NCBI GenBank assembly: GCA_905178155.1
Contig: CAJINV010000001.1
Span: 2,408,089-2,472,088, forward strand
Reading direction: 5' to 3'
Source of the DNA: Amoebophrya sp. A120
Taxonomy: Eukaryota > Protista > Dinoflagellata
DNA length: 64,000 nucleotides
Position numbers and translations under genes: made by a program. Each line of letters begins with the position of its first letter. Position 1 is the first letter of the stretch. Under the pieces are notes generated by a model. It had not been told where the DNA came from and made no database searches. It saw nothing but the letters and a program-made list of their open reading frames with translations. Shown in pieces: positions 1 through 62,121 of this stretch.

Positions 1-95
1 TTCTATTGCTTGTCATGCAACACAGATTTTTTCAGAATCCAAAAGTAGCATCACAAGTTGTATCCTTCCAGACCCAGATATATGGTAAAGGTGTA

Positions 96-230
96 GACCA
101 GGGCCCCTGGGACCAGGGCCCCTGGGACCAGGGCCCCTGGGACCAGGGCCCCTAGGACCAGGGCCCCTAGGACCAGGGCCCCTAGGACCAGGGCCCCTAC
201 GGACTGGGGCCCCTACGGACTGGGGCCCCA
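96..230. repeat. 15-16 bp tandem repeat GACCAGGGCCCCT(G/A)G, about 9 units (inverted set at ~956-1044)
   Basis: Directly visible; no spacers between units. Confidence 0.9.
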
Positions 231-331
231 GTCGTGTCTCAGAATCTGGCGTCCCGGAATCTGGTGTGCCGGCGTCTGGATCTGGAAGAGTTGGGGCGTC
301 CCTCTACGTACAAAAAAAGCACAGCTCGACT

Positions 332-593
332 TATGAACTGCAAATATGTCTGGGGCTGGAAGGATGCAACTTCTGATGCGGCCTTTGGATTCTACCAAAA
401 TCTGTATTGCGTGAGCAGCAAGAGGAGTTCAGTTTTTGCCACGCAGAGGGGGCATTTCTCATGCGGTGTAGGCATCAGGAAGCGCTCGCAAAGGGTGTGA
501 TGCTGGGGCATGCATCACAGGCATCATGGATCATGCAAAATGAGCATGAGAAATCTCACAACCTTCCAGACCCAGACATTTTTACATTTGATA
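332..593. mobile_element. Introner family A, nested in the foldback element
   Basis: TATGAACTGCAAATATGTCTGGG...CCCAGACATTTTTACATTTGATA; direct repeat CGACT. Confidence 0.85.
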
Positions 594-1074
594 CGACTTT
601 CATGGTGACAATTTGAGATGTCTCTCGTTAGCACTTTGAGCTGCATCCCTGTCCACTCAAGCAGTGATTTTGCTGGGAAACATTTCGAATACAAACGGCG
701 CCCGTCGCATTGTAAATAGATCTGGGTCTGCACAACTAAGAACTTGTGACGCGTGTCGAGGAATATAGAATAAAGCGAAAGAGATGCTCTGGGTAGTCAG
801 CAGACTGCGTCACATATTACGTGTGGCCTGCCTTCTTCCACCTCCTGGCCCGATGCTAGGACTTACAAGACATGCGTACTTGGTGGCCCAGATACGCTGG
901 CAGACAGCTCCGGTTCCGGCCGCGCCTCGCCGTGTACCAGATTCCGGGACGCCGTTCAGTCCGTAGGGGCCCCAGTCCGTAGGGGCCCTGGTCCTGGGGG
1001 CCCTGGTCCCAGGGGCCCTGGTCTGAGCAGGGGCCCTGGTCTACCCGGATACCCAGATATATTTGCAATGCATA

Positions 1075-1867
1075 TCCACCGCGTGAGACAGCAGTCCAGG
1101 TCGAACCGGAACACGGGCACGTCCTGGTTCTGGTTCTATCAAATGCAAATATCGATCTGGGTCTGGAACAAGATTGCAGAACTTGTCATGCCGGTTTTAC
1201 GTGACCATGTTGGTCTAGCATGCAAGCCCTAGCATCACAGGTTTTGAGCAGGAGGTATCCCAATGCTTAATCCGCATGACAAATGCCCTGCTTCGGTGAC
1301 AACAAGTGGGCGACTTTTGCTGGCCAAGCATGATAGATTTTGGCATGATGTAGGGTTCGCATCACAAGTTTTAGGCCTTCCAGACCCAGACATATTTGCA
1401 TTTGATAGATTCGACCCCCGCTCCATTTGCCCGGACAGCCCGTCCATGAGCATCTGCAAGGACCGCTGCGCCTGGTCCTGGTAGTTCTTCGTTTCATAGT
1501 TGTAAATGTTCTTTTTCGGCTTCTTCTTTTTACTCTTGGACTCTTTGTCTTTGCCTTTGAAAGGCGCGGCTGCATTTTTCTTTATCGGATCAGCATCTAA
1601 GTTGTTGTCCTTCTCGTGCTTCGCTGCTGAGTCTTGCAGTTCTTGCTCCAATGCGGAAAAATTCTTTGTTCGCAACCAATCCGCTCCCTCTCCCTCCTCT
1701 TCCGTGCCGGAATCTTCAGGCTTCCCGCCACTTCCGGCAATCGCACCGCTCTTGCTGGACTCATGTTCGACGTCGTCGTTGTGTGACGTGTCTTCGGAAC
1801 GGGATCCGCGCCTCCTGCTCGACGTCCAGGGCCTCTTCACAAAACTTGTCAGATTCTTAAACCACAT
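1075..1867 (-). CDS. Hypothetical protein, 5' part (continues past window start); exons 1867-1408 and ~1131-1075
   Basis: ORF MWFKNL...ERGSN joins in frame to QNQDVPVFRFDLDCCLTRW when introner 1137-1407 plus one repeat is removed. Confidence 0.7.
1137..1407. mobile_element. Introner family A (non-canonical intron)
   Basis: TATCAAATGCAAATAT...ATATTTGCATTTGATA; direct repeat GGTTC/GATTC. Confidence 0.85.
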
Positions 1868-2550: not shown

Positions 2551-5500
2551 CTACAGCCACTTGAGCGGCATAACGTAGTCGGGGGAATCTGAGTAGCCAA
2601 AGAACTCTAGATCGAAGGCAAAGTGTTCCCGGACCAGTCCTATGGTCTCTTCCGTCCACAAGGCTTCCCACGTGGTTTCGCAGTTCCGGTACTGCACTTT
2701 TTTCGCGTCGAAGGAGCAGATCGGTCGCTCCGTGTTGCTTGAGGGGAGGACTTTTGGAAACTTCTTCGGTGCCGGGTGGCAATAATTGTACTCTTCGCAC
2801 AGAAGCGCGTAAAGCTCTTCCAAGTCTGGCCCTATTGTCTCCAGATGCAGGACAAAAAAATCGTCCAAGTCCTGCACTGGCCCGTTTATTTGTAGAAAGA
2901 CCTCGTCGTTGAGCATGTCGAGAAAAGGCCGCATGTGAAAGATGTCGCTGACATCCACTTCCGACTCCAGGTGGACGCAGAACCCCTTGTCTGTACTATC
3001 GCTGTGGTCTTCCTCTTGTTCAGTAGGAGAAGCTGTACCCCCCTCACCAGGATCATCTTGTACGGATGTTGACACGTGGGAGGTCCTCTCGTCGGTCAGC
3101 TCTCGCGAGATTGTGTAGCCTGCGTCTTTCGCCTTCTGGATCATTTCTGGGGTCGACTTGTTCACGCACATTTTCGGGTTTTGTTTGTCCGCGAAGTTGT
3201 CGCTGATGTCCTTCGTGAACCCGATTCCGTTCAACTCTCGCCACTGCGACCGTAGGTACAGCATTCGGCTCAGCCACTTCCCGAAGTCCTTCCAGTCTTT
3301 ATACGGCCCCGCCCGTTTTCCGCCGCCCCCGTTCGTTGGCGGCGCACTCGTGTTATCCGCGCTGTCTTCGTCCGTCCTTTCCGCCTCCTTCGGCGGCTCG
3401 TTTGGATGCCGCTGCGTGGGAAGCCACGCGAACTGGTACATGGAGGCCATGCGGACGAAGGGGTTTCGCGCCAGCACCACCTTCTTTCGCCACTTCTGGC
3501 TCAGGCAGCAGTTCGGGCACAGATTTGCCGGCGGAAGAAACCGCATCCACGTCCAGTGCTGCTGCGTGTAGGAGTCGGGCGGAAACCGGTGCATCAACCG
3601 CTGCGACAGGTCTTGCACCACCTCGTTCTTGTCCATGTGGCCCCAGCTGATGTTTAATTATTTGCGATAATTTTACTTGATCTAGACCATGTTCATCTTT
3701 ATTGATCTGTGTTGTGCACTTGTTCTTGTTGCAGCAGCGCCGAAAACAGGTCAAGATTCCTCATCCATGCGAAAGTAAAAATTATAAGTAGAGGTGGACG
3801 TAGTCAATTGTTTGATGATATCTTCAGGGCACACGCAGACAAGTTTGTTTCCCCACCTTCAGCAGTCAGAAGACATGGGTTAGAAAAACTCTTTGCTCAT
3901 CGTCATCATCAAGAATAGATCGGCAGTAGTTATGTTGACAAGGGAGAATATGTCCTCGCATGCTAAGAAGATCCAATCAGGGCACACGCAGACAAGTTTG
4001 TTTCCCCATGACAGTTCGACTGGTGTCGGAAGACATGGGTTAGAATAAAACTCTTTGCTCATCATAGAGAACGTGAAGATCACAATCATTCACAATATCA
4101 TGCTGAAATAGAAATAGAAATTCAAATTCCGTGCCGTTGGAAATAATAAAGGTGCTATTAAGCTAGTACATCAGGGCACACGCAGACAAGTTTGTTTCCC
4201 CATCTTCAGCAGTCGGAAGACATGGGTTAGAAAAACTCTTTGCTCATCATGAGATTGGCCGTGGAACTTGTCCTAGATACGATTCAGGCTTGACCTTCGC
4301 TTTCTTGATGTATCTGTCACGTCGAGGTGCGGCGTCGTAGTTTTACTTTTCAAAAGCTGTTACTATCAATCACTTGGGAGGTACAAGAGATGCTTATTGC
4401 AGCAGTGCAGTGTGAGCAAACTACATCGACGAGATCTATCGAGGAAGAGACATTCAGCGTACTTCGAGAATGCTTGTTGTGCTGCGGCGCATCAGCAGCT
4501 GCTCTACGATATAAATTCAAATACAAGCAATCAAAATGAATAAGTACTAGTCCAGCTCCGTAGCGAGCCAATCGATCATGACCTTTGGCCGTTGCAGCAT
4601 GGCGTCCATTATGAACTGCAAAAGTATCGTACTAGTAGTAATTGCAATACAAATTAGCTCAGCATGACAAATGGGGTCTGTCATGCTGTTTTGCCTTGGG
4701 ATGGAGATTTGCAATGCAAGACATGCATTTATACGAGTACGATACTTTTGCACAGGATATCCATTGCGTTTGCGAGACTGGTTTTGATGTAGGGTTCCAA
4801 ATCCATAATGTAGTTCACCGCCGTATCAAATGCAAATGTGTCTGGGTCTGGGAGGATGGAGCTTGTGATGCGTCCTGTGGGTCACTCAAAAATCTGTGTT
4901 GCGTGATCACCAGCAAAAGTTCTCCTTTTATGACCAACATGAGCGGGAGTTTCTTATGCAGGATAGGCATGATAGAGATTTCGCAGAATCTGTCATGCTA
5001 GGTCCTGCATTCCAGACCAATTGGGGCATGGAAAATATGCATGACAAATCTGCACTCCTCCAGACCCAGACACTTTTGCATTTGATACGCCGAGCTTGTC
5101 CCGGACTTTGGCAGCATGAAGAACGCGATCGGCGCGCCCATGGGACTATCAGAAGGAAAAATTGCCCCTGCCCATATCGAAGCGGCACGTCTCAGAAAAT
5201 TTCTAATGCGGATCAGTGGCCACAAATCGCGTCTGTCTTGCAAGAAGGCAACTCCAGAGGCTCCGCCGCAATATGGTGGCTGTCTGTGATGCTGGTGGGC
5301 CTACAGCATGGACGTTTCTGATGCCAAACGCCTAGGCCAGCCCCTCTCTACTCAGGCGTGATATGGGCCTGCAGTCCTTCACTGCAAGACACAGCTGATT
5401 TGTGTACGCAAATCCAGCATCAGAAACTTCGTTTCGATATGGGGAGGGGGAATTTTTCCTTCTGATAGGGACAGTGGAATAGTTGCGTCAACATGCCGGA

Positions 5501-6848
5501 ATTCTGCCCGGGCTTCCAGATTTGACAGTTTGAATTCAGCAACACCTTCTGCCGATCGCGCAACTGCGGCTCAATGTACCGGTGCGCCTGCATGATGCAC
5601 ATCCCCCCGCCCGGGCCGTAGGCGTCGCAGTGGTCGGCCCGGAAAGTCGACACCTTTTCGAACAGCGTTGGCTCGGTTGGATCAGTACTAGCAACTGAAG
5701 CCGGCGCGCCCAAGCTGACCCGTGTCAACTTGTCCAGCGTTTCGGGGTGGAAGTCGAGGAAGTTCAGCATGTATCGTAAGGAAAAATCCTCCTCCCCATA
5801 TCAATAACGAACCCACAGAAAATCTGCAATGCTGATTTGTGACCGCAAATCGCCTCTGTCATACAAAAAAGCAACTCCACAGGCTCCGCCGAATTATAAG
5901 GGCGGTCTGTGATGCTGTTGTGCCTACAGTATGGACATTTGTAATGCTAGGCGCCTATGTATTTCAAACTCAAAGCCTTGCTTCCCAGGGTTTGCATATA
6001 ACTGCAGTCCTCTACCGCAAGACAAGTCTGATTTGTGTACGCAAATCTAGCATCACAAATTTCCTGTTCGATATGGGGAGGGAAGATTTTTCCTTTTGAT
6101 AGCATGTTCCCCTTCACTCGTTCCCGCAGGCCCGCGACGAACGCCGGCTCCGCCTCCTCGAACGCGGTTCACTATCCTGAGTAAAAACGTACCCCCACCA
6201 GAGTTGTAGTGCAGATTTGCAAAGACGGGAAGACTTGTAATGCGCATCCCCATGAGAGCCATTTCCAGTCGTGTTTTGGAATTTGTGATGCTGTGAACAG
6301 GATGAGCAGATGAATCTGTGATGCGGCTGCACTTGCTAACCTGCACTACACTGCAGAGTGCAACTTGTCATGCGTGACTCACAAAACTCCTAGGTTTGTG
6401 CTGCAAAATCCCCATCCTGACTCTGGTGTGGGTACGTTTTTACTCAGGATATCCACAAGTGCTTGTTTTCCGGCTCGAAAAGCAGCTTTGCGAGGTCCTG
6501 TTGCAGTTCCAAATTGAATTCAGCCACTTTTTCCGGGTCGCACAGGTGGTACCAGTGCAGCTCCGACTGCCGGTTGGGGACGCGGTACAAGGGCATCACG
6601 GTCTGCATCACGCGGTGGACCTGCTCCAGCATCACCGGCGGCTCCGTCTCGTTCCATGTGGGTGGGAACAGGAGGCCGCCCCGCTTGTTCTCGGACTGTT
6701 TTTTAGTAGTTTCAACATCTTGCCTGTCGTGGTCCTGCCCGGCAACGAGCAACTTCTGGCGGGAAGCAGTGAATGAACCGCTCGGCCACGCGAGAAAGAG
6801 CCACAAGAAAAGTATTCTGCGAGGATGAAGAACTGGTGCCATTTTCAT
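2551..6848 (-). CDS. Carbohydrate sulfotransferase-like protein (Sulfotransfer_2 type), 7 exons
   Basis: Hydrophobic N-terminus ILFLWLFLAW; 5'-PAPS motif LPKSGTSS (~5090-5115); 3'-PAPS motif RNPFVRMASMY. Frame is continuous after removing 5 introners and GT-AG intron 3647-4547. Paralog at 22062-24315. Confidence 0.8.
3824..3909 (-). ncRNA. Box C/D snoRNA, copy 1 (intronic)
   Basis: ATGATGA...CTAACCCATGTCTT-CTGA...GTGGGGA...GTGTGCC-CTGA, with terminal TCTT/AAGA stem. Confidence 0.65.
3977..4065 (-). ncRNA. Box C/D snoRNA, copy 2 (intronic)
   Basis: Box C ATGATGA, D' CCGA, C'-like ATGGGGA, box D CTGA; guides conserved, D'-C' loop divergent. Confidence 0.7.
4171..4250 (-). ncRNA. Box C/D snoRNA, copy 3 (intronic)
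   Basis: Same boxes and guides; similarity among copies ends at boxes C and D. Confidence 0.7.
4610..4759. mobile_element. Introner family D
   Basis: TATGAACTGCAAAAGTATCGTACT...AGTACGATACTTTTGCACAGGATA; direct repeat TCCAT. Confidence 0.85.
4824..5087. mobile_element. Introner family A
   Basis: TATCAAATGCAAA...TTTGCATTTGATA; direct repeat CGCCG. Confidence 0.9.
5147..5467. mobile_element. Introner family C
   Basis: TATCAGAAGGAAAAATT...AATTTTTCCTTCTGATA; direct repeat GGGAC. Confidence 0.9.
5772..6101. mobile_element. Introner family C
   Basis: TATCGTAAGGAAAAATC...GATTTTTCCTTTTGATA; direct repeat GCATG. Confidence 0.9.
6173..6451. mobile_element. Introner family B
   Basis: TATCCTGAGTAAAAACGTACCC...GGGTACGTTTTTACTCAGGATA; direct repeat TTCAC/TCCAC. 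Confidence 0.9.
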
Positions 6849-12464: not shown

Positions 12465-12503
12465 TTTGTCGCGAGGCACACACCGCCAGACAGACACAAT
12501 ATA

Positions 12504-15223: not shown

Positions 15224-15225
15224 TA

Positions 15226-16249: not shown

Positions 16250-19200
16250 TTAGTATCTTCTGCCGCCACCGCCCCACTGTCTCGGGTGGTTTGGATTGTG
16301 GTCGTAGGGGCCGCCTCTGGAGCTGTTGCTGTAGCCCCCGCCATTATTTCCCCAGTTGTTCTTGCCTCCGCCCTTATTTCTGTTCTTCCCGCCGCCTCCG
16401 CCCCAGTCGTTATCCCGTCCATACTGATTATGCCCCGCGGCTTTACTGCTCGTGCTCCCGCCGTAATTGTTGTTATAGTTATTTCCGTAATTGTTGTTTC
16501 GGTCGTACCTTCCCGTGTTGCTGTTGTAATTCGAGGGCGCCGCCCGGCCGGCCGCCGGGTTGTACTCTTCCCGCGGGGCCTGGTTGATCCTGATGGCCTT
16601 TCGCGTGTCCAAATCGTAAGTCCACTGGTTGTCATCCTGGTTATTTTGCCTTTTGTTTGACTGGTTCTGCATCTGGATCCAGGCGTTGGAACCAACTTCC
16701 GGTTCGTTCGAACCCCCAGCGCCTCCCTGGTCGTCGTAATTCTCGAAGTTTTGCCGCTGTTTGCCCTTCGCTTCCAAACCCTTCTTCCCGGTGGCTTTTC
16801 CCCCCTTGGTCCCCATCGTGTGGTTAATCTCTTCGAAAAAGGTCTGCAGCAAGTAGAACAGCTTCTGCAAAAATTGCGTCTCCTGCGGGGAGGGCGGGTT
16901 GTGCGGATTTTCGCAAAATTTCGCGAACACGAACTTCAGCGCCCGGCGGATTTGACAGATGGAGGTCGCGTGGTTTCCCTGCATGGTGAACTTGATCCAC
17001 CCGTCGTGGAGGGCCAGCTCGTTGTTTTCGAGTCTTTCTTCCCCGGCGATCAAACACAAAATCAGCGGGTGAACCAAGCTCATCTGTTTGATGCTGTAGC
17101 TCGACTCGACCTGCAGCAGCTCCTCGAAAATGCACCACTCGTCGTTCGCAATCACGTCTCCCAAGCCCCGGGACGTGCCGTAGCAGGTGGACATGTGCGC
17201 GCTGGCGCCGAGCTTGCCGCCCTTCACCTCCATCTCCCGCGTGTTTTTCCCGCACCGTTTCACGGCCACGTTCGGGTAAATCCCGGCAGTCAGGACGGAC
17301 AGAATCAAGTGATCCTGCCCGCAGTTACGGGACGCAAAACCGTCGGAATCGCCCAGACCTGATACGTTTTTTCATTTCACCAATTATATGTAGTGAGGTC
17401 ACGAACGTTCTACCCTAGTGGTTTTTTTGACATGCATCACGCAAAACGACCGGCAGGTTTCAAGCGGCCGGAGGTGTTTTTGCATATAAAAAATTTTCAT
17501 TTATCAAGCGGCCGGGGCTTTGATATCAAACAAGCCAGGTCGAAAACTATCGACTCCCGCTTGATAAAACGACGCAGGGGAGCCGGCAAAAGGGGCGCCC
17601 TTCTGAGGCGCCCACCGCCTTAGTTTCTGGCGGTTTGGGGCGCCCAGAAAGGGGCGCCCGAAAAGCAACAACCCGAAAAAACAGCAAATCCGCATGGTAT
17701 GGGCCCCATTTTGGCTTACATTCGGGCCCCGCAAAAGACGCCACCAAAATCCGCCATTTCAGAGGCGGACTGAAGGCCAGAAGATGCGGCATTTTAATAA
17801 AAAAAACAAAAAAAACAAAGTCCGCCAGAAGCAAAAAGCCAATCCGCACGCTATGGGCCCGATTTGGGGCTCCCAAGGGGCCAACCCTGGCGGGGGCCCT
17901 GGCGGGGCCATAGCATGCGGGGAAGGTTTTTCATGTCGAAACCAAATGGAGGCCACCTCTGGATCGAGATTTTTAGCGACCGCCGTGCCGTCGTGCATAA
18001 CATTACTCACGGCGGCATAGTGGGAAGGGAAGTCGCGTCGTTTTTTGGAGCGAAGACAAAAAAACCGCCATGACCTCACTACCCCCGCTGAGGCGGCTAT
18101 TATTGGTATGTGTTGGCTTTGGCATTGTCGTCGTGTGGAACGAATGGACAAGGACAATATGTCGAGTTGTCCTGACCATGAGCTAACTGAAAGTGCGCTC
18201 TTGTTGAATAAAACAGCTTCAGCCGTTTCTCTACTGCACAAATTTAAGTCTGGATCTGGAACTAGAAATATATTGCAATGATCTTCAAAAAGTACCTTGA
18301 TCCGGCAAGTCCGCTCGCAGTTTCTGTGACTGGTCCGCCATCTGTCGCACGGTTTTTGCGTTGAGCCCGTTATCGCGTAAGAAGTCCAACCGCGTCCCCT
18401 GTTTCGACTGGTCCAGCGCCCGGAGCAGCGCGATGTGGTCGGAAACGTACGGCGCCGCCAGGTTGGTTTTGTGCGTGCCCGAGGAGTATCAAATGCAAAA
18501 ATGTCTGGGTCTGGAAGATTACCAGGTTTGTCATGCATATTTTGCATAACCCATGATGCCTGTAATGCCTGGCCGCGCATCACAGATTTTTAAAGGGCCT
18601 TCTGATGCGTATTCCGCATGAGAAACGCGCACTCCGCGCAGCACAAACTGAACTCCTCTTGCTGGTCATGCAATACAGATTTTTTTTACCTTCCAAAGAC
18701 AGCATCACAAATTGCAACCTTCCAGACCCAGACACTTTTACATATGATAAGGAGGCAGAGGCGTCTCCCAACGTGGTCATTTCCGTTTCCAGTTCCCCCG
18801 TGACCGGGTTATCCTGTGCAAAAGTATCGCACTCGTTGTATTGCAATCATGCATTACAAATCTTTTTCTTAAGGTCGATCCGCATTACAAATTTTATTTC
18901 TCATGCTGAGGAAATTTGTAATGCATTTATACGAGTACGATATTTTTGCAATTCATACGGGTTGCGCGATTGCGATGTTTTTTCCGTCAGTTTCTTGCCC
19001 AGGGTAAGAAATGGATCGCGGCAGAAGGCCGTGGACCCCACGACCTTCAGCACGTCGTCGAGCACACCGAAAAGCGCGCTCCACATCACGGTCTTTGCCA
19101 GTGTCGGCGGCAGGGAACTGTTACAGAGGGCCTTACCGAGCGGCGTCAGCATCTCGGTTCCGTGGTCCAGAGCGCCGATGGACTTCAGCAGGTCCACCGC

Positions 19201-43178: not shown

Positions 43179-46100
43179 TCACTGTGCAAAATCTCCGTTC
43201 CAGGGCTTCAACTTTTCGAAGGTTTCCCGCCTTCCGCTGATCGGGTTGGTCCAGCCCTCCGCACCGTACCCCGGCGTGTTGATTAGCCACCGGTAGCCCT
43301 TCGCCCCCTTTGCCGCAGGAATCATGCCGTTCAGACCGCCCTCCATCGGCGGCGCGATCGGTGGGCGGCCGTCGTCCATGGAGTCCAAGGGTGCGTGCGT
43401 CATGTTGGTCCACCAGTAGTAGCCGTGCGAGTCGTGCATCGGGAACCACGTGCCCGCTTCCTGGTCCGGGTTCTTCACGAAGAAGTCCGGGTCCGCGTCC
43501 TTGTACAACCTGCGCTCGAACTCGGTGGGCCACCGCGGCATGAAACTGCGGTCGCTCTGCTTTATCCTGTGTAAAAACGTCCCCACACCATAGTTGTCAT
43601 GCAAATCTGCATGCTTAAAATGTTTCTCATGCGGAGCCCCATGAGAAGCATTTTCTAATGGTGTTTCGAAATTTGTCATGCTCCAATCAGCATGAGAGAC
43701 TAGATCTGTAATGCTGCTGAACTAGCTCAAACACAACTACACTACGCGTCCAAATTTGTCATGCGAAACAACCAAAGCTTGGGGATTTGTCTAGCCGATT
43801 CCCCATCTTGACTATGGGGTGGGTACGTTTTTACATAGGATATGCTTGGAAAAGTCCTTGCCCGCGTCCGCCCGGCACTCGTCGACGTTCAGGAAGTTGT
43901 CCGGGTCGTCGCACCGGTATCCTGAGTAAAAACGTCCCCACCCCATAGTCAAGTTGTGAACTCTGCAACACAAATCTAGGAGTTTTGGAAGCCATGCATG
44001 ACAAGTTCGTCTTTGTAGTGTAGTGCAGGTTAGGAAGGACAGTCGCATGACAAACTCATCTCCTCATCCTGTTTACAGGATTACAAATGCCAAAACACGA
44101 TTGGAAATGCCTCTGATGTAGATGCGCATTACAAATGTTCCTGTCATTGCAAATCTGCATGACAACTCTGGGGTGGGGACGTTCTTGCTCAGGATAACCG
44201 GTCGCTCTGGCTCAACCAGTAGTCCCGTTTCGGGTTCCCGACCAGGTTCTATCAAATGCAAAAATGTCTGGGTCTGGAAGAATGCAAGATTTGTCATGCA
44301 TATTTCTCATGACCCATGATTGTCTGTGATGTATGCCCTAGCATCACAGGTTTTTAGAACCCTTCCTGATGCCCTTTCCGCATGAGAAATGCCCTGTCCG
44401 TGTAGCACAAAGCGCACCCCTCTTGCTGGTCATGCAACACAAATTTTTTTAGAGTCCAAAAAAAGCATGACAAGTTGCAATCTTCCACCAGACCCAGACA
44501 TTTTTGCAGTTGATAGGTTCTCGCGCATGGCAATCATCGCTAGCGGGTTCTGCGGCGCCATCCCCGCCATGAACGTGTTCGGGTTTTCCATGATCGGGTG
44601 TCTTTGCACCGTGAACCCGATGTGCGCGGCGCGGTATCGTATTTGAAAACGTCTCCACCCCAAAGCTGTAATGCAAATCTGTATGCTGAAAATGTCTCTG
44701 CTCATGCGGAGCCCCATGAGAAGCATTTTCTAGTCGTGTTGTGGAATTTGTCATGCTCCAATCAGCGCGATGCACTAGATCTGTGATTCTTCTGCACCTG
44801 CTAGAAACGATTACACTACGGGACCAAACTTGTCATGCGCAACAACCAAAGTTGACAGATTTGTCTAGCAAACTTCCCATCTTGACTCTGGGGTGGGGAC
44901 GTGGTTTTTTCTCCGGATACCCGCCCCCCGATGTTCTCCCAGCCCTCTTTCCAGTGCTCGATCTCCTTCGGCTTGAACCGCGCCACTATGCAAAGAAAAA
45001 AGTGTCACAGTTACAAATTGCTTTGCAAAACATGCAAGACAGACGACCTCTGTCATGCGCAAAATGCATGCGTGTCTCGTTTTGTGTGCGTTTTGCCTTA
45101 TGATCTCTGCATTACAAGTTTTCAGCGTCATGCGAGGCAAATTTGTGATGCTTTATTCACTACAAATGTGTAACTGTAACACTTTTTTCCTTGCATAGCC
45201 ACGGACGTGATTTTCATGTCGAACCAGTGCGGCCGCGGGTCCCACTTCGGCGTGCAGGGAAGGATTAACGTCTTCTGCGACCCGCCGATGGCAACCATAG
45301 TGCTGAAGTCCCAGTGTCCCGGCTCCGGGTGCTTCAACCTATGACAGTGCACAACGGCGCCTCCCCCCTCACTTGTCATGCAGAACCGCGATTCCAGTCG
45401 CTGCCTCATGGCACTCTTTGCATGACAAGTTCTGGTAGCCCAAATAGCACTACACTCCGGTGGAAATCTGTCATGCAAGACCGGCATTCTTGTTGATGCT
45501 TGTATTACCGTCCATGCTATACAAATGAGGGGGAGGGGGAGTTGTGCACTCTCATACAACCCCACCCGGCTGTCGAAGATCGCGTCCCACAAAATCCGGT
45601 CGGATTTCCCGTCCATCCTATGCATCGCAAAAGCATCGCAGTTGTACTTCATGAATCGCATGACAAACTTTTCAAGCGGAAAGATGAAATCTGTCATGCA
45701 GATTTCGGTAAGAGCCTACGGGTCTGTCATGCAAAACTGCGTTTTACACCAGCAGTCTTCGCTACTTTTGCACCTGGGATACATACCGAATTCCTTCAAT
45801 TCGACCCGGATTCTCCCGTCGCTGAGCGGCCCCTTCTTGTCCCGGAAGTTCACGGCTGGCAGTTGAAACATTCTGTTCGTGCCCCCGAGAAACGCTTTCG
45901 CGGTCTGCGTCTGCTCCACGGTCCCCCCGCCGCCCCTGGAGAACGGCGGACGGTCCGTGCAGGTGAACCGCCCCTTCCGGCCGAAACCGGTCTCCCCGAT
46001 GTTTACCATGGGGAGGGAGGACTTCGCGATGTTGGTGCTGTAGATGTCTGCCGTCTGGTACTGCAGGTGAATGAAGGCGGGGCCGAGGTGGGGGCCCTTC

Positions 46101-47252: not shown

Positions 47253-49294
47253 CTATGCTTCCTTGGCCTCGGCCTTATCACCCTCAGGAGCCTTCTCACC
47301 CTCTACTTCTTTCGACGCTTCATCATCGCCTGCGGCCTTGTCGCCGTTTTTATCATCCCCCTCAGCCTTTTCGCCCTCGGCCTCGCCTTCCGTCTTCGCT
47401 TCGTCCTTCCCTTCCGCGGGCTTTTCTCCTGCTGTTTCGGACGGTTTCTCTTCTTCCGCCGGTTTCTCTCCTCCTTCCGCCGGGGGCTTCTCCGCCTCAG
47501 TCCCCACAGCACCTGCTCCGAACCGCTGTCTAATTGGTTTCATCTCGCTTCCTGGCGGCGCCGTTGACTTATCCAGCGTTTTGGCAGCTTTTGCGAAAAA
47601 TGCCTCGTTCAATTCACCATTCTTCCCGGCATCCTCCGTGCACTTCTCCACCTGCGCCGCCGCCAGCACTAACTGCTGTGTCGGCGAGCCCTTGGGCAGG
47701 GCGCCCATTTCGAGCCGGCACTCGGGCGGCTCGTGCAAAAGGGCGACGTTGCCGGTCTTCGGGTTGCGTCGCACGTAGTACTGAATAATGTTTTTCTGCG
47801 CCTCCGCACAAAATTGGTACGCCCGGGAAGTTTCGTGCACCGCGTCGGCAGCTTCCGCGAGCTTTTCCGGTGGGGGGCACTCCTTGCCGGTTGTGCCCAG
47901 AAGCTTGTCGACCTGGTAAAGGTCGTCAAGATACTTACTTTTATCAACTACAAATGCGTTCGCGTCATCATGTGCCGTGCGGCCATGCACCACTCTTCAA
48001 CATATCGACAATACCCTCCGAACAAACACAACTCCAAACACGTCGAAAAAGATGAATAAAAAGAACTTTACTGCTATACAGCTTAAGTACCTTCCCTGCC
48101 GCAGTCTCCAGAGCGTCGTTGACGTGCTCCGCGCCTTTTGCCAGCCACTCGCCGTACTTCGCCACCGTGTTCCCCCTGCCGAAGAGAAACTCCCCCGTCA
48201 CCAAATCGAAGTTGTCTGGCGGCTTGACCGGGTGTTCGTACAGGATTGCGTCGCCCGAAAGAGGTTCTGTAGTTCCTGCAGCTTCCCCTTCTGCGGCACT
48301 TTGGTTTGAATTATCCCCCTCCGCCTTCGGCTGCATTTCCGTCTGCAAGTTCACCACCCGATACACGATGTCCCCGCCCTTCACCGCTTCCTTGTACTTC
48401 TTCGCCGCCTCGCTCTGCGCCTCCCCCGTATCGAGTGCATATATGTCTGGGTCTGGAAGAATGTTAGTGTAATGCTGTTTGTGCATGACACAGAAGATCT
48501 AGCATGCCAGTCCTAGCAACACAGGTTTTGAGCACCTTAGGCGATGCCCAATCCGCATGACAATTTCCCTCTTTTGGTGACGAGAAATGCGCAAGTTTTG
48601 CGGCCCATGCATGACAGATTTTTTTCTGGTCTTCAATGCGCATCAGAAGTTTACATGTTTCCAGACCCAGACGTATTTGCAATGCATAGCCCGTACCCAT
48701 GCGCAGTCTCTCCGGACGCCGCCCCGCCGTTCGCACGCAGATGCAGTCGCTCGGGTGCGCGCACAGGCTCGGGGAGTACGCAACAGGAGAGAAACTGTAG
48801 CAGGCCTTGTCCTTCGCCCCCAATCCGTTTTTCAACCCGAGCTCGCACAGCTCCTTCACGACCTTGTCTTGCCGCCCCGTCACGGGACAGCCATCTTCGA
48901 ACTCGTACCCCATGCCGCTTCCCTTGCCGCTCATCAGCATCACGCCTTGGGGCATCCCGTTGCTGGGCTTCTCCTTGTCCTCGTCCCCGGACGAGGTCAT
49001 CTGCGTTTCCAAGTCCTCCTTGGTGGGCATGAAGCCAAACTTTTTCACGTTCGCGACGCATTTGTACCCCACGTCGCAGAGCTTCAAATCACCACTACCT
49101 GCAGCGTCGGCAAAGGAAGTCGGACGGTGGTCGTGGGTACCAGATATAGAGGTGTAGTGAGGATCATGTGAAGAGGTCTCCGCAGAAAGAACCGGCGACC
49201 AGTGCTGCTGAAATTGGTCCAGAAACGCACGGAGCAAGGCGGGCATGGTGCGGTGTTGATTTACATTTGTTTTCAACTTCTTGTTTCCTTTCAC
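47253..49294 (-). CDS. Hypothetical Cys-containing protein with E/K/A-rich C-terminus (start uncertain)
   Basis: ORF 48464-49294 joins 47968-48486 across an introner (RMGTG-EAQSE), then ORF 47253-47993 across a GT-AG intron at ~47913-48091. Confidence 0.65.
48429..48688. mobile_element. Introner family A
   Basis: Family A TIRs; direct repeat CCCCG/GCCCG. Confidence 0.85.
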
Positions 49295-49992: not shown

Positions 49993-51310
49993 TTAAGCCA
50001 GCCGCCTCTTCTTCCGGTTATTTTTTCCTTGCAAAGGTCGTTCGTCGTCTTCTCCATCAGTCAATAGCCTCTTCCCGCCGGTGGAAGCCAAGGCGTCCAG
50101 TCCTCCGTGAATGCGGGAAGATCCATCTTCCTCTTCGGATTGCTCATCGGAACATTCCTCATCGGATGAAGATTCTTCGTCGGAAGCTTCCTCACAGGAA
50201 GACTCCTCAACATCGGAAGATTCCTCATCGGGACGAGATTCCTCTTCGCATTGCTCCCCAAACTGCACCGTCATGTCCAACGTAACCGATGCCAAACTGG
50301 ATTCGTTGTAGGACATCCCGTAGTAGGACAAAAATTTTCGGAGGTGCTCCGGATATGAAATGCAAAAGTGTCTGGGTCTGGAAGGATGTAACATGTGATG
50401 CGCATTTCGGAACACACAAAAATCTCTCATGCATGGGTAGCAAAAGCTGCGCACTTTCTGGCTCCAAAGTGGGGGGTTTGTCATGCGGGTTCGGCATTGC
50501 GGAAGCTTCTCGAAACCTGTGATGCCAGAGCTTCCATGCCAGACCTTCTGTGTCATGCAGAAACAGCATGACTCTTCCAGACCCAGACATTTTTACACTT
50601 GATACCGGACCCGCGGCGACCATTTTTGCCGCAAATCTCCGATAGTGCGGTATCGCGTACCGCAAAACATCGACTGTTGCCACTTCCTCCGTGCTGATGC
50701 GAATATAAGAAGGTTCTTCGCTCCGCGCGACCATCTGCTCGTACGCCGCGACGAGATGCGGCTTTTGGCGGCAAGTCTCTGCGAACAGGTTTACCTTGTC
50801 GCAAAATTTCTGCCCGTGCTTCTTCACTAACTGAGGGGTCCCAAAAGAACGCAAACGCAACTCTTTAACAGCCTGGTCGATTTTCTTATCGCGATAAAAC
50901 GAATTTGGAAAAACAGTCTCCGCGAAAAAAGTGAAGGCGCTGTTGTAGAGAAAGTGGTCCACAACGTCCTGCAGTGTCCGTCGCTGTTCCTTGAAGAGAA
51001 ACGTTCGTCGCTTCGACATCAGCGCGTCCGACCTTCGCAGTTTCAGGATTTTCTGCCGCGACCCGGTAAACCGCGTGCTTGCCTCAGTAAGGTACATGGC
51101 GAGAAGCCACTCTCGCAGCTCGTCTTTGTTCTCAAAGTCTCTCAGCTCCGCCGGGGACGCGTCCGTAAAGAGCCAGGTGAAACACAAAGCCACCATGTAA
51201 GAGTGCAAGGCCTCGAACAAGCCAGGCGGGTGCAGGCGCACAGTCACGTCCTGTTCTCCCTCGGCTGAATATGAGGTTGGAGAACTTGAACTTCTCTTCC
51301 CCGTCGTGCT
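49993..51310 (-). CDS. Hypothetical protein segment with acidic tail; possibly the 3' exons of the RING gene
   Basis: ORF 50225-51247 joins 49993-50556 across an introner (AAGP-EHLRKF); an in-frame AG acceptor lies near 51311. Confidence 0.6.
50354..50604. mobile_element. Introner family A
   Basis: Family A TIRs; direct repeat CCGGA. Confidence 0.9.
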
Positions 51311-51599: not shown

Positions 51600-54500
51600 C
51601 TTTACCGAAAACACTATCAAATGTAAAAATGTCTGGGTTTGGAAATTTCTGAGACTTGTCATGCACGTTTTGCATGGGCCATGATGTCTGTGATGCATGC
51701 CCTAGCATCACAGACTTTTTGAGGGCTTCGCGATGCCTATTCCGCATGGCAAATTCCCTCTCCGCGTAGCCAAAATTGCATTCCCTTTGCTGCTTATGCA
51801 ATACAGATTTCTTTGGAATGCAAATGCAGCATCACAACTTCCAATCTTTCAGAGCCAGACATTTTTACAGTTGATAAACACCTGTTGCAGGCAGTGGAGA
51901 AATATGCATTGCAAAAATGTCTGCGTCTGGAAGAATGCATGTTTGTCATGCTTGTCTGGCATGACTCTTAAATCTGTCATGCACGTTACCCAAAAGCTCC
52001 ACTTTTCTGTGATGCAGAAACGCAGTTCGTCATGCAAAGTAAGTAGGCAACACCCAGAAGCTCAGAAACTTGTCATGGTGAGCCAGCACTTGTGGCCTCA
52101 TCATGAGACGCCACCCAGCATCACAAGTTTCCAGACCCAGACATTTTTGCATTTGATAAGAAAGTCTCGCGGCGAGACGGCGCGTGCTCCTGCACCTCCT
52201 CCCAGGGGCAGATGCTGCTCCCACTCGCGGGACAGGAGACTGAGCAGCGCGGCCTGGGCGATCACCGTTTCTTCCAGCGGCGTGTCCCGGAAAATTGCAG
52301 AAGAAGAAGCTGCAGTAAATCGGTGCCTCCGCAAAGCGTTATCCATTTCAAACTTTTTCACGTAATCTGCGAAAGAAAAGGGCACGGTAGAAGTTGCACC
52401 TACGGAGGTCCCGCAGCCGCAACTTTCCTCCATCTCGCGCACCGCATTCTTCCGCTCTTCGTATCGCAGCAGCGCCGCACTCAGACCCAGTGGATGCGAG
52501 AAGGGAGTCTTCGGCTCCTGCACTGGAAAGAGCGGCTTTGGTTTTTCCTTGTCTACTTCATCATTTTTCCCAGTAGGAGTTGCACTGCCGTCATAATCGC
52601 GGAGGTCCTCGTATGTTGTATCCAACTTGTCCACCACAAACGGGTGCAGCGTGCGGGCGTAAAACTGCTTCCACACGTCGTACTCATGTTCACTGCAGTC
52701 AAAATCCAAACTCACTCGCAACGCCGATGCGATCGCTTTCAAGTGCGGCAGCTCCCACCGCTGAAAGGGGCGGCTCGATCCCCGCAGCGGGAACACCATC
52801 GTCATCCATATTTCGTCGAGGGCGGGCTTGCAATCTTCCGTGAACTCCTCTTCTTCTTGGATCGTGGGCAAGGTGGGTAGCGGCGGCCCACTGCTGGAGG
52901 TGGTCTGGTAGAACCTACGGCGCTCGTACAAGTCCTCGTGGTCGTTTCGTCCGGCACTCAAAAGGAGAGGCCCGTCCTCGACCGGCCTCTCGATGGGGGC
53001 TTCAACACCCCCGCCGTCGACATCAAACGGCGCCTCGATGAACGGGGGCCTTGGTGTCCCCGTCGTCCTACTCGTGCCTCCTTTGGCGGTGCGCCGCACC
53101 AAGCCGAGGTACTGCTGCCACCGGCGTTCCGTCCCCGCTAGCCGCACCTTCCGCTCCGACGCTAGGGCGAGCTGGACCAGCCGCGCAGCCTCTTGCCGCA
53201 ACAAGCGCACGCGCTTCGATCGGGCTTCGTAGTACAGCGCGATGGGATGGACGGTCGAGGTAAAGCAGGCATCTGCTGTTGTACTGATGGTGCAACGGTC
53301 AGGATTAAGGTGCTGGTAGAAAGAAGAGGCTGCGCCCGTAGTTGACGAAGAGCTGGATGTTGAAAAACCGCCTCGTTTGTCGCTTCTTTCCTGCACGCTG
53401 GCTGCCAGTTGTCGGCTATTGTAGTTACTATCACAATGTGCGGAGTTTCCTTCCCCATAGCACAGCAGCGCGGCCACGTCATGCACTTTCCGTTCGTGGT
53501 TTTCGTCCGCAGAGACAATACGCAGGGCCTGCTCAAAGGCCGCTTTGTTTGTGAACTTGCACTCCTCTTCGTAGTGGTCCCGAAACTTCGCCAGCTCTCC
53601 GCTCCAGCCGCATCCGCGGTCTTTGTGGCAGCAGAAAACGGAGACTTCCGGACAAACGCGGTGCGCGTGGTGCTCGAACCGGTCGAACCGCGCAATCGCC
53701 GCCTTGCACTTGCTGCACGACCCTTTCTGCATCATCACCATGCGCTTGATGGGCAAGGCCGGCGTGACGCCATGGAACTTTTTGCGGCACAGGGGGCAGG
53801 CCTTGTACGTGGATCCGTCTTCCCGCTTCTTCACCATGTGTTCTGACTCCACGCACTCGCGGCACATCGCTTGCCCCCCGCAGCAGTTGAGCAGGACCGG
53901 GTCCTGCACGGTTTGCAGGCAAATCGGACACTTGCACTCCTCTTCCGCCTCCTTGTTGTCAAACACGAAGTCGGGCAGCGAGTCTGGTAACCTCTCGCAC
54001 TGCTGCGCCTGTGCAGCCGCGTCCCCCAAGTCGTCCTCGTTCGCCCCCTTGTAGTCCGGCCGGACCTTGGTGATCCCGTGGCAGATCTCCGAGAAGGAAT
54101 ACAGCGAAAGGAGATCCCTGCTCCGGGGCTGCTCCATCACTTTCCACAAACTCGTCTTCGACGTGGGAGAAAAGGGATCCGCCTTCTCCAGGGTATCAAA
54201 TGCAAATATGTCTGGGTCTGGAACGTTTGTAGATTTGGCATGCATATTTTCGATGACCCATTATGTCTGTGATGCATGCCGTAGCATCACACATTTTCCG
54301 AGGGCTTTGTGATACCTCTACCGCATGAGAAATGCCCTCTCGGCGTCGCACAAACTAACTGGAGCCCTCTTGCTGGTCATGCAATACAATTTTTTTTGGA
54401 ACCCAGAGACAGCATCACAAGTTTAGAATCTTACAGACCCAGACATATTTGCATTTGATACAGGGCCTGCTGCAGCAAATCGTTGTAGAAGGGGATGGGC

Positions 54501-57368: not shown

Positions 57369-60300
57369 TCATTTCACTTCGCCCTCGAAAGTAGCACCAT
57401 GCGTGTCCGCTTCCCCATCATCAGTCGACTGGGGCCTCGGGGAATCAAGTTCAAGAAGAGCATCCAACTCGTCCTCAATATCGGCACCATCGACAGCTTG
57501 TTCACTGTGCAAGAAGGGTGGTTCGTCGCAGTCTTCTGGGGCGTCGTCGTGCACACGGTGTTCTGACCTGGAACTTGTGTTGAACATCCAGCGTTCGTCC
57601 GACGGGAAGACGTGGCCATGGCCGGCTGTACGACTCCACGGGGTCGCTGTCGTTGCCGACGTATCTGGAGTCGCCCAGGGCGGCGAAGTAGGCAGCAGCT
57701 CCGTCGTGGAGAACAAGTCTCCTTGTTCTCCTGCTCTCATATTACCACAGTGCTGCCCTCTCGTCTCTTCAGAAAAGCCTGGCGAAGGTCGAAGAGTCAG
57801 ACGAAATAAAGCGCTGTCTTCCACCACCCTGTGCGAGGAAGTGCTATGCGGCCTTGAAGATGACGGTGCTGGAGGCACGACTCGTCCTGCAGTGGAAAAT
57901 AAATCACTACTCCGATCCGTTGTTTCGGCTGCGGGATGATCGCGAATGTAACTAGTACTAGACGCCGGACTAGATGAATTGTGCGCCGGAGCTATAGTCG
58001 AAGCCGTGGCGGGATCGGGCTCTCGGTTGTTCCGTTCTTCCCATGGCCTTCTCCGGAACACTTCTGCCCATCTCTGACTCGTCTCCCGCAAGACTCTTTC
58101 TGTTTCAGCTCTGCTTCCTCCACTGTTGTCGCGCTCCGCTGGTCGTGACGGTGCGGTGACCTGAGTTGCGCTTACCTGAGGCGCGATGACCTGCATTTGA
58201 GTTTCTTCGAACAAATAGTACACATGCACATGCAGTCCACCACGACGTGACGCTGAAAGTAAATTCATCAGTTTCCTAAACGAAAATGAAAACAAAAAGC
58301 TCAAGCTCCTATAAAAAGCAACACGTTGGATCTACTTAGGCTATCAAAAGCAGACCAAACATTTTTACCGTAGATATGGCCGCCGTACCACCGCGCGGAT
58401 GTCCAAGGGGCACCACCGGCGATACAATTTCCGCAATTGCGGTGGCTGAATAGTCTTCATCGCGCTGAGTGCTGCAAGAAACACCAGGATTACTGCGAAG
58501 GCTTCTACCACTCGTAGTAACGTTGGCTGCAGCTTCCGAATTTGCAGCTAATGCCGCTGTGTTACTACTGCTGGAAGTGGAACTACTGCTTGCCCGTTCT
58601 TGCGCTGTCGCGGGATGTTGTTGTTGCTGTCCTCCTCCTCCACCCCCTCGTGCACCATCTACTGCTGCACCACAACGCGTTTCAAGATACCGATACCGAA
58701 GAACTTCTTCCTCTTCCAGGCCTATTTTGTTCCTGCCCGAATTGTTCAGAATTTCGGTGCTGCACTCGTACTGATTGAAAAGAAGCTGCTTCTCAGCTTC
58801 CGTAAGATTCTGGTCACCGGTCGTAAGAACGTCTCGGATGAGATTGATACCGTCGGATGAATCATATGGAGCCTGCTCGTCTATGATCGCTTGGAGCTCC
58901 GTCAGGCTCATCTTCATCAGATTCTCAGGTCGAAAGCGGGGATCCGGATCTTCATTCGCTGGATGGGCCTAGAATTAAGATTTTTCTTTATTGTTTTTCG
59001 ATATAAACAGGTATATCTTCATGATCAGTTTCACAATGTTTATACTTCGACCCCAAACGCATGCGTGCCTGTGCTGACACATGAAACGTCATGCGACAAA
59101 AATGTATCGCCCAAAGGCGGTAAAACAACCACGTAGTTATTGTAATTTTTACTACCGCAGCAGGCTCTTGCTGTAGCTCTTGTTCTGCGTCAACTTCGAG
59201 TTGTTCCTGTGTTGCACGAGTCGTGGCGGGGGCTGCCTCACGTGAATGATCCAGCGGAAGATTACTGCTGGTACTAATTCCCCCCACCTCCACCTGACTC
59301 CCGTGCGCGTCCCGCGGTTCATCCAGTTGCTCTGATACCGCCCCTTGCGTCGGCCGCTCCTGCCTTTCTTCCTCTTCTTCTCGGTCCCTAGCCTCCCACC
59401 GTTCGGTACTATCGATCTCCCGTGCCTGTTCTATCGGGCTATTATTTCTGGGAGGATCGCCCGGCTGACTAAGAGCAAATGAAGTTGGAGCTGCGCCCAA
59501 AAAATCTCTGCTCAAGCAGATGTTGCTCGTGGTAGTTGTCGTAATAGTACTCCCGCCTTGCGTCGCTTGCAGTGTCGTATCAGTGGGCAATCTACCCGCC
59601 GCTGAGCGAGAATTTGTATCTGTTCCACTTACATGGAGCCGCTTGCTGTCCCTGCTCTCCGGATAAACAACATCAACATCTTCTTCCCTGTTAGAATCGG
59701 ATGTAGTTATTAAATCAGCTGCAGCAGTAGCAACTCTATTACCTTGGATTCGTTCATCACTTGCCGCTTCGCCTCCTGGTCTTCGTACTACTGCTGTGTT
59801 AGCAGCTGTCAAGATTTCGCGTGCTGCGTTAGCACTTAGCGAAAGAAAGCGCGGAACCGCAGCAGTTCTCCTGCTTCTACGCGCAGGTTGTGTGCTGTTG
59901 CTGGCCAAATTCTCGCTTGTTGCAGAAGAAGAAGTTGAAGTTGTTCCATTCGCAACGTTCCACCTCAGCGACGCACTACTACCGCTATGGTTCCTCTCGT
60001 CGAGCAGTCCTCTTTGTTCCACCTGTCCGTGGTCGTCCTGGCTTTCGTCTACAACGTCCGTCCCGGCTGGAGCCCCTCTAGTTGTACTCGACGGAAGGAG
60101 CTCCTCGCTCGGCTGCCTCGGTTCTTGCCTTGCTGTTTGGTGTTCCCTTATGGCTTGCTCGCCGCGTCGCCCCGCCCGGTCATTTCGTCGTAGACGGCTT
60201 CTGCTGCTTCGTTCTTCTCCATACCGTCTCACAGGCCTCGATGATGAAGATGAACTCGACGTACTCTGCGCTGCGTCGGACGACGAGCGCCGGGCCCCAT

Positions 60301-62121
60301 TTCTTCTTGTCCGCTCGCCTCGCTCTATTCCGCGCAAGACAGCGTCCACCAGAAAATTACTCTGTGGTCCTTCTCGCGCCAACCCTCTGGCTGGAGCGCA
60401 CAATAGCTCCAAAATTCTCGGTGTTGATCTAGTATCGGTACTAGTAGTTGTAGCTGTTTGTCGTGTTTCTCCATTTCGCCTCCCTGTCTGGTCGTCCATT
60501 TCTACTGCGTGCCCGTTCCCACATTGCTGGTTGCTCATGATCTGCTCGTCGAGATGAGAAGGTTCGTCGCTTGTTCTTGCATTCGACGTTGTTGTCGAGG
60601 GAAGTAGATTTGCAGGGGCACTACTCACGCTCGGACGAGATGTTGACCCGCCCATGGCTTCTAAAAAACCTTCTGCGTCCTCGTTCGTGTCCTCAGCATC
60701 AGCTTGCGGCAGCTGCAACAGTCCCCGCTGTGTCTTCCACCAAAAAGATCCAGGCTCTGTGACGGAAAAGATCCCCTCTTCAGCCGCACTTCTCGGGAAG
60801 AAGACCTCCGCACTATAAATGTTATTCGTCGTTGTACTCGATGTCGAACAAACGGTCGTTCCGCCGGCGGCTGAGGTCGTTGAAGACGATGTCGATGCTG
60901 TGCTGCTGGTTGCGATCGCATCCGCGTTCTCGCGCGGCACTGCGAGCTCTGACATTTCATTTCCAGCAATGTCACCAGCTGCATCAGCTTCTAGTTGTGA
61001 TGTGGTTCCTCTTGAATCATTGCTCAAAAATTCGCCTGTGAGACGCGATATTGTTCCGGCCGCGTTAGATTGCATGTGAGCATGCCTCGCAAGGGTCGTG
61101 TCAAGCGATTCGTAGTCTGAAGACGAGGTGGAGTCTTCCTCATCGTCTGAAGACGACGAATCCTCCCCATCCTCGCCGTCTTCGCTGTCGCTATCGTTCT
61201 CGGAAGACGAGAACTATGCCTTGCAAAAGTATCACACTCGTACTAATTGCAAATATGCCATGCATGAGCATGGTAACGTAAAACAGCATTACAAATTCCA
61301 CTTCTCTTGTTCTTGCCAAAATTTCTTGTAATGCTATTCATACTAGTAAGTACGTTGCTTTTGCAATGCATAAGAACGGTTCTCGTACAACATCCGCCTC
61401 TTCATGAAGATCTGCGTCTACTTGTTCGATCCGTGGATTTAATACCATTGGCTCGTCGTTATCCTGCAGTAGCCCCGCCGCTCTGAAGGTCGCGTTTAGG
61501 TTCTCTTCGAACCAACTCCGGGGAGTTGGGGAGGACTGTGTTTTTGTTTCGGTTTCCAATTCTTTTATACAACTCGATACCCGTTTATAATTTTCATTTT
61601 GCTTTTTTACGAGCAACAGAACACGCGAAGATGCTTTATTTCCTGTCAACACCACCTGCACACCATTTTTGCGTACGTTCGCCAATTCATGATCTTTTTT
61701 CAAAGCTATGGACGTTGAAATCAATCCAATGGAATGATCCAAGAGGTTGTAACTACAAGGGTAGTACCGTATTAACTCCACTCCGCGACAGTCCTGCGGC
61801 TCTTCCCGCCGGGCGCGTAATATGCCGGCCGGGCGAGGATTCGATAAAGGGCATACGCGGCCTCTCCGGACGAGGATGTGTCCCGTTCTTGGGGCGTCTA
61901 GTGGGCGTCGTGCCTGTGGTTGCGAAAAGTTTGTGACCAGGACGGTGCCATTGCATGTAGAGGTAGACAGTGACAGATCTTCGGTAATAGAATTGCGTAC
62001 TACGCGACGCCGAACAGCAACGGGGCGGTTCGTAAACATAACCACGCTCGAGAAAAACGACAGCAATTAGGCACAATCTTTCTCTTTCATTCCTTAGGGT
62101 CAATAAAAATAACATCATCAT
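57369..62121 (-). CDS. Large low-complexity (S/T/A/R-rich) hypothetical protein, several exons
   Basis: Consecutive long minus-strand ORFs 61338-62066, 58988-61075, 58336-58917 and 57369-58304. The first two join in frame across introner 61215-61372 (REPF-SSSENDS). Confidence 0.55.
61215..61372. mobile_element. Introner family D-like
   Basis: TATGCCTTGCAAAAG...CTTTTGCAATGCATA; direct repeat AGAAC. Confidence 0.85.

Follow-up and report, generated by a model that had tools for sequence, protein, structure and literature searches.

The stretch analyzed here, referred to as the window, comprises 64,000 nucleotides of contig CAJINV010000001.1 of Amoebophrya sp. A120 and carries, among others, two sulfotransferase-like genes, a DEAH-helicase gene and a RING-finger gene. 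Its genes are interrupted by short elements that start with TAT, end with ATA and are flanked by a 5-bp direct repeat, and that are very probably introns derived from miniature inverted-repeat transposable elements (MITEs). Twenty-seven of these elements are complete, measure 148-330 bp each and jointly account for 10.6% of the window. Terminal inverted repeats (TIRs) were sought with an ungapped scan in which TAT/ATA ends were demanded; combined with self-comparison of the window, it returned 26 of the elements, and in the 27th (45619-45781) one TIR arm contains a small insertion. Together with one copy cut by the window start (1-83), the total agrees with the 28 elements of a preliminary description made from the sequence alone, whose TAT/ATA ends, 5-bp direct repeat and count of 22 perfect repeats are confirmed by the TIR scan and by repeat-length scoring. 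The copy at the window start, not among the complete copies of that description, has its ATA end at position 1074. The six families also stand, with other sizes: A comprises 13 complete copies and the cut one, B 4 and D 5 (previously 5 and 4, respectively), C 3, and E and F one each. Under stricter clustering thresholds, family A separates into two subgroups, and 45619 and 61215 fall outside every multi-member cluster. The elements, and the evidence for the removal of each, are the following.

1..1074, no strand: family-A element, 3' part; left end before the window; TIR broken at 83/84, resuming at 1063-1074 (ATA end)
84..1053, no strand: nested foldback-like insert of another element class; 970 bp; 9-bp repeat at 75-83 and 1054-1062
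332..593, no strand: family A, perfect 5-bp repeat; inside 84-1053, not exonic
1137..1407, minus strand: family A, repeat 4/5 (synonymous difference); open reading frame (ORF) continuity only
4610..4759, minus strand: family B, intron in a sulfotransferase-like gene (P0006); deposited protein junction
4824..5087, minus strand: family A, intron at the end of the PKSGTSS motif of P0006; protein junction, A25 homologue gapless
5147..5467, minus strand: family C, intron in P0006 (LFH/CP); deposited protein junction
5772..6101, minus strand: family C, intron in P0006; deposited protein junction
6173..6451, minus strand: family D, repeat 4/5, intron in P0006; upstream copy gives Trp as in P0006, downstream copy a stop
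18487..18749, minus strand: family A in the DEAH-helicase gene; ORF continuity
18810..18957, minus strand: family B in the DEAH-helicase gene; ORF continuity
23662..23930, minus strand: family D, intron in P0002; deposited protein junction
29965..30200, minus strand: family A (second subgroup); ORF continuity
33631..33951, minus strand: family C; ORF continuity
33991..34242, minus strand: family A (second subgroup); ORF continuity
37199..37460, minus strand: family A; ORF continuity
43563..43842, minus strand: family D, intron in P0001; deposited protein junction
43918..44196, minus strand: family D, intron in P0001; deposited protein junction
44250..44515, minus strand: family A, intron in P0001; deposited protein junction
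44635..44919, minus strand: family D, repeat 3/5, intron in P0001; the P0001 peptide results from every register
44987..45197, minus strand: family E, intron in P0001; deposited protein junction
45340..45556, minus strand: family F, intron in P0001; protein junction, sole element able to slide to GT-AG
45619..45781, minus strand: B-like, gapped TIR, repeat 4/5, intron in P0001; deposited protein junction
48429..48688, minus strand: family A, repeat 4/5 (synonymous); ORF continuity
50354..50604, minus strand: family A; RNA-derived contig joins 50348 to 50605 (element and 5 bp lost)
51615..51876, minus strand: family A; weak ORF support (short exons)
51903..52158, minus strand: family A (second subgroup); weak ORF support, one RNA contig stops exactly at 52159
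54194..54460, minus strand: family A in the RING-finger gene; 1155-codon ORF after removal
61215..61372, minus strand: B-like; 971-codon ORF after removal

Short, TIR-bounded, repeated and accompanied by a site-specific flanking repeat, the elements exhibit features of MITEs. The imperfect 5-bp repeats agree in four of five positions at 1137, 6173, 45619 and 48429 and in three of five at 44635. Over 26 elements, the mean match between the flanks is 0.96 at a repeat length of 5, as compared with the chance level of 0.22-0.35 at lengths 2-4 and 6-9, and a perfect 6-bp repeat occurs in none (0/26). The repeats have a GC content of 57%. When family-A TIRs are picked by an internal motif, TAT not being demanded, 267 out of 281 still start with TAT. 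The inverted-repeat profile over 52 ends reads TAT, seven variable bases and AAA, positions 11-15 being A-rich.

A larger sample was drawn from the assembly JACKZZ01 by a motif scan (11 of 64 parts covered), which returned 173 overlapping loci totalling 554 kb. Since the exons of locus L049 match A120 almost fully (one gene tested), these loci represent the same species and not an independent confirmation; a 71% match had suggested horizontal transfer between species, which was rejected on the same ground, the L049 exons being essentially identical to the A120 protein P0010. All window families are present in the loci, at 76-95% identity. The flanking repeat is a perfect 5-mer in 203 out of 258 cases and agrees in at least four of five positions in 243, other lengths being at chance and perfect 6-bp repeats absent (0/258). 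Among 210 perfect repeats, 191 distinct 5-mers are found. Reading frames were assigned with a codon model trained on the window exons to 118 of 269 non-overlapping elements, the other 151 being dropped. Family-A orientation in the framed elements is unbiased (22:23), and the G bias at repeat position 1 seen in the window (13/27) is not reproduced (22/89). A phase bias is seen as well: in 49 of 89 framed elements, the first base of the repeat is the third of a codon. No match was found in viral contigs.

All six families also share an internal motif, TGT[CG]AT[GA]C (TGTCATGC-type), with 767 occurrences across 70.8 kb of element sequence, as against 9.5 in shuffles, and three in 56.4 kb of window DNA outside the elements. 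No multi-member cluster lacks it, strand bias is absent (139 sense, 134 antisense), and the motif is read as a putative subterminal protein-binding site common to the families.

Long minus-strand ORFs reappear when an element is deleted together with 2, 5 or 8 bp, but not with other lengths, and retention would break the ORF in 25 out of 26 exonic cases. The preliminary assignment of the elements to host reading frames fails for 332-593, which lies in the nested insert at 84-1053. As +2, +5 and +8 bp score alike, ORF continuity fixes the frame only, and the exact loss of five bases is therefore taken from RNA and deposited-protein junctions. An RNA-derived contig (run X3, record 9) joins position 50348 to 50605, element 50354-50604 and exactly 5 bp being gone, the outcome anticipated for spliced transcripts in the preliminary description and here obtained at one stretch. 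The library type of run X3 is not on record and the junction is that of an assembled contig; the run is taken as spliced RNA because two introns able to slide to GT-AG are missing from its record 12. The RNA reads of the 2026 runs X9 and X10 (55 and 42, of which 55 and 40 partial) lie mostly over elements and are uninformative. At 50573-50609 and 43778-43813, X9/X10 reads show element-like ends with other flanks, so that transcripts from another strain or locus contain related TAT elements.

At the protein level, the window exons match the deposited A120 proteins P0001, P0002 and P0006, with 100% identity over long exons, and the junction peptide is reproduced only by removal of the element plus 5 bp, among lengths 0-11 tried, for all 13 elements concerned. 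The A25 homologue P0005 aligns gaplessly over the P0006 junctions at 5147, 4824 and 4610, and three junction regions of P0010 are all gapless against A25. Identity to the A25 homologue amounts to 54% for P0006, which has five elements, and 86% for P0010, which has three; P0001 carries seven. At the protein level only, the A25 homologue and a paralogue are gapless at several element sites. The paralogous sulfotransferase-like genes (2554-6926 and 22065-24342) contain five and one elements, respectively, at different sites, and constitute a built-in empty-site comparison. The remaining 12 exonic elements are supported by ORF continuity, weakly for 51615 and 51903. The earlier statement that removal of an element with one repeat restores the host frames therefore stands, with the exact five bases at one RNA and 13 of 13 protein junctions. 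For the catalytic motif said to be restored with them, PKSGT, the label is putative, as Pfam returned only sub-threshold sulfotransferase matches.

Canonical splice sites do not account for the junctions. Sliding within the repeat yields GT-AG in one of 27 elements (45340), GA-AG in one and AT-AC in two, while 1.6 out of 27 are expected by chance for GT/GC-AG; in the larger sample, a GT/GC-AG register is found in 5 of 89 framed elements (5.4 expected). The elements therefore lack the ends of U2 or U12 introns (GT/GC-AG or AT-AC), GT/GC-AG being at chance level. The claim that, in the junctions tested, sliding does not give GT and AG together is borne out for 26 of 27 elements and fails at 45340. 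In 19 of 27 elements, no frame-keeping GT..AG pair lies within 12 nt, and at 50354, where such pairs occur nearby, the RNA contig nonetheless uses the repeat junction. The region does contain GT-AG introns, and in L049 a single gene holds them alongside the elements.

Perfect repeats hide the position of the cut, which imperfect repeats can show. At 6173, the deposited protein has the Trp encoded by the upstream repeat copy, whereas a codon completed with the downstream base would be TGA. At 3771-4074 of L049, 9 of 11 homologues have Lys and none has His, and at 5298-5553 all 11 have Gly and none has Glu, both pointing to the upstream copy. For two of these three informative repeats, the 5' cut can lie no more than 1 nt from TAT, and hence the 3' cut 4-5 nt past ATA. 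A geometry with the 5' cut at the foot of the hairpin and the 3' cut displaced outward by 4-5 nt, leaving the upstream copy in place, is thus probable. For 21 of 27 elements, structure prediction pairs the three terminal bases (P above 0.4), and one element has a folding z-score of -5.4. A mismatch enrichment at repeat positions 4-5 (12/18) was discarded, as it is not significant with better frames (p 0.12-0.27), and the only match bearing on repeat position 5, through L053, is an intron read-through gene call. The Ala at the Rab junction of L058 fits the upstream copy if the usual Rab consensus is assumed; a PDB check gave nothing relevant.

Taken together, the elements are, with good confidence, MITE-derived introns removed at the RNA level by a family-independent, structure-based recognition. 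Non-coding TIR elements would have been inserted into exons by one integrase-type transposase, between 5-bp repeats that would probably be the target-site duplications (TSDs) of a GingerRoot/IS3EU-like DDE enzyme binding the shared TGTCATGC-type motif. In the pre-mRNA, the two TIRs would pair and probably serve as a ruler for the cuts, at or within 1 nt of TAT on the 5' side and 4-5 nt past ATA on the 3' side, so that the upstream repeat copy would stay in the mRNA; cutting and joining would be guided by the hairpin and ignore GT-AG. Whether catalysis would be non-spliceosomal, through a pathway of the endonuclease/ligase type as has been proposed for nonconventional introns of Euglena, and not by lariat splicing, is about evenly balanced.

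Several points weigh against this reading. Among the matches listed (15 of 889 joints, 16 of about 20,470 pieces), an RNA junction is found for one of the 13 elements of the stretch concerned, and the deposited proteins are gene models and not raw data. The polarity rests on three elements, two of them in one gene, and just two of the three confine the 5' cut to 0-1 nt; six of 27 elements have no predicted terminal pairing. Repeat mismatches are synonymous at 19 of 31 sites, as compared with 0.45 expected for a fixed cut and a free intronic copy (p 0.046), and adding the 5 of 6 of the window (p 0.01) hints at a sliding cut. Lastly, no long TIR-bounded coding element and no DDE or other transposase ORF, anticipated in the preliminary description, was found in the window or the 554 kb of loci.

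The strongest alternative, to which we give somewhat less than even weight, concerns catalysis only: a modified U2/U5/U6 spliceosome, working as in Fritillaria without U1 and without reading GT-AG, would use the invariant 5' UAU and the 3' U-tract provided by the TIRs. The A-rich end positions 11-15 do place a U-tract before ATA in either orientation, GT-AG introns coexist with the elements in the region and in the L049 gene, and according to passages of Farhat et al. 2021 (PMC7789003), A120 retains U2, U4, U5, U6 and most spliceosomal proteins, U1 not being found. However, no base is conserved at the 3' cut, as the diversity of the repeats (191 of 210 distinct) attests, structure prediction buries the 5' site, together with any branch point close to the 3' end, in a long stem, and the elements have no orientation bias. 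A homology-guided removal with a cut sliding anywhere in the 5-bp repeat, either copy entering the mRNA, appears unlikely. The synonymous excess speaks for it, since the expected fraction is 0.29 without selection and 0.5-0.67 if both copies are constrained, against the fixed-cut value given above; yet 12 of the 31 mismatches are non-synonymous, with small numbers and frames from a codon model, the downstream base at 6173 creates a stop, and all three informative elements keep the upstream copy. It is very improbable that the elements are ordinary gene-disrupting MITEs and the junction a product of reverse-transcriptase template switching across the hairpin: a strong hairpin with a short direct repeat is a known recipe for such artefacts, as passages of PMC2923612 describe, and the sole RNA evidence is an assembled contig from a run whose library is not on record, but the exons that retention would break are open and conserved, P0001 among them with its seven elements. 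Equally remote is excision from DNA at some life stage, like that of ciliate internal eliminated sequences, which TIRs, direct repeats and precise loss of one copy would resemble and against which one DNA run could be examined: contigs of that run (X1) run into or through elements at the single-copy depth of 41-46, one of them spanning 45619-45781 whole, the second assembly likewise carries the elements in its DNA, and, as the preliminary description had expected for introns, no flank-to-flank join is found among the X1 rows listed, contigs being prone to drop rare variants.

The window turns the question of excision into rules open to checking on existing data, namely one repeat length, no need for a junction sequence, independence of orientation and a probable upstream-copy polarity, and imperfect repeats offer a genome-wide readout of where the cut falls. 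Under the ruler model, if it is true, the host would tolerate exon-inserting transposons without GT-AG. A bolder version, in which A120 would possess an additional splicing pathway, blind to sequence and measuring from the foot of the TIR hairpin, whose cuts lie flush with TAT on the 5' side and five bases beyond ATA on the 3' side and exactly erase the TSD, any element of one integrase-type group becoming a seamless intron in either orientation, is rather doubtful. If true, such a pathway would be convergent with the Euglena code and more precise, and the TGTCATGC-type motif could serve both the mobilising and the removing protein as a common handle.

Other repeats accompany the elements in the window. 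The insert at 84-1053 has a perfect 9-bp repeat, G-start imperfect TIRs (12/16) and GC-rich tandem-repeat arms; it interrupts the 3' TIR of one family-A element while containing another family-A copy (332-593). We presume it to be Mutator-like, from the length of its TSD; no relative was found in the 173 fetched loci. An identical 36-codon Lys/Met-rich ORF occurs four times on the minus strand (7367-7477, 9952-10062, 10894-11004 and 14050-14160), within repeats of ~1.1 kb that are 83-87% identical, and its identity amid diverged surroundings suggests purifying selection. It resembles the N-terminal tail of dinoflagellate DVNP proteins and has no Pfam match. A second repeat family (~727 bp, 84-90% identical, both orientations), which does not follow the TAT/ATA rule, is located at 12501-13230, 14502-15228, 15372-15922 and 17383-18109. 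The last copy lies inside an apparently GT-AG intron of the DEAH/RHA helicase gene (16253-21436, minus strand), which encodes R3H, DEAD, Helicase_C, HA2 and OB domains and contains two introners.

Regarding mobilisation, the preliminary description had proposed one transposase type and one family-independent removal. The latter is supported by RNA and protein junctions across families; one mobilising machinery for all families is favoured on sequence grounds, because the families have their ends, a uniform 5-bp repeat and an internal motif in common. Four longer TIR-bounded copies in the loci are seemingly ordinary copies with extra internal sequence, and the two ORFs scanned have no Pfam match. 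The suggestion of an IS3EU signature holds for the ends: passages of PMC10045372 and PMC6839031 describe IS3EU and GingerRoot with TA..TA ends and usually 6-bp TSDs, and the elements resemble them in the TA..TA termini, the TIRs, the lack of a sequence-specific target and the GC-rich repeats (61% in GingerRoot, 57% here). They differ in the repeat, which is 5 bp here and never a perfect 6 bp in the window or the loci, so that membership is rejected on repeat length. Membership in Ginger1 or Ginger2 is rejected on the termini, which are TA..TA here and TG..CA in Ginger elements as described in the same two papers. In the 41 of 58 A120 rows covered of one supplementary table of Gozashti et al. 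2025 (PMC12130899), family 38 is assigned to Ginger, with integrase-like ORFs and '5-bp TSD, TA/TA Termini'. This family is the best candidate for a partner, matched by description and not by sequence, and the uniform 5-bp/TA..TA signature ties the short families to it. Thus, of the earlier view that the transposase is unresolved, it stands that none was found here, and a Ginger-like candidate had already been published. In the same dataset, A120 fam3 (3852 copies) has integrase (PF00665) and Copia-type reverse-transcriptase matches among its members, which may stem from nested retrotransposons or point to the mobiliser.

The elements of the window are those of the published A120 introner system, and their discovery is not new; the link that the preliminary description drew to the repeat-bounded non-canonical introners of Amoebophrya is right. 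Text passages of Farhat et al. 2021 (PMC7789003) report ~29,850 copies occupying 17% of the A120 assembly, with an inverted repeat of TAT, seven variable bases and at least three As, a hairpin, direct repeats at the junctions and a mean non-canonical intron of 240 nt, the 5-bp repeat being named in the legend of Fig. S19. The genome, the TAT+7+AAA inverted repeat, a junction repeat within 3-5 nt and the non-canonical removal are all found here. The same passages describe repeats of 3-5 nt, variable in length and position, whereas those of the window are uniformly 5 bp and abut TAT and ATA; they also argue against general mobilisation by a transposase. Junction polarity and the internal motif do not appear in the text passages of Farhat et al. 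2021 and Gozashti et al. 2025, and Figs. S19-S25 may bear on both; among the papers listed on Amoebophrya introners, non-canonical introns and spliceosome/U1, no title or abstract opening reports an excision mechanism. Many A120 families in the covered rows of Gozashti et al. 2025 (PMC12130899) measure 105-350 bp and have TIRs, like the window elements; their automated TSD calls range from 2 to 6, and the window copies are short and non-coding. Introners of Micromonas, Aureococcus and Polarella are similar in having a TIR and a TSD and in forming introns without changing mRNA length, according to passages of PMC9860276, but they carry splice sites or co-opt them from the TSD, while GT/GC-AG registers are at chance here. 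The nonconventional introns of euglenids work alike: in the passages available of PMC12501133 and PMC11282704, they lack GT-AG, have junctions made slidable by direct repeats, coexist with GT-AG introns and likely originate from MITEs, and their excised forms are reported as circular RNA (PMC11282704). Pairing of their ends is required, the paired motif lying 3 nt from the 5' cut and 5-6 nt from the 3' cut (PMC12501133), an offset similar to the one seen here. The window elements are not members of that class, since the euglenid code N3CDG...CHGN5-6/R, with its CAG/CTG motif and a purine after the intron, belongs to an unrelated lineage and is replaced here by TAT[CG]...ATA followed by five variable nucleotides.

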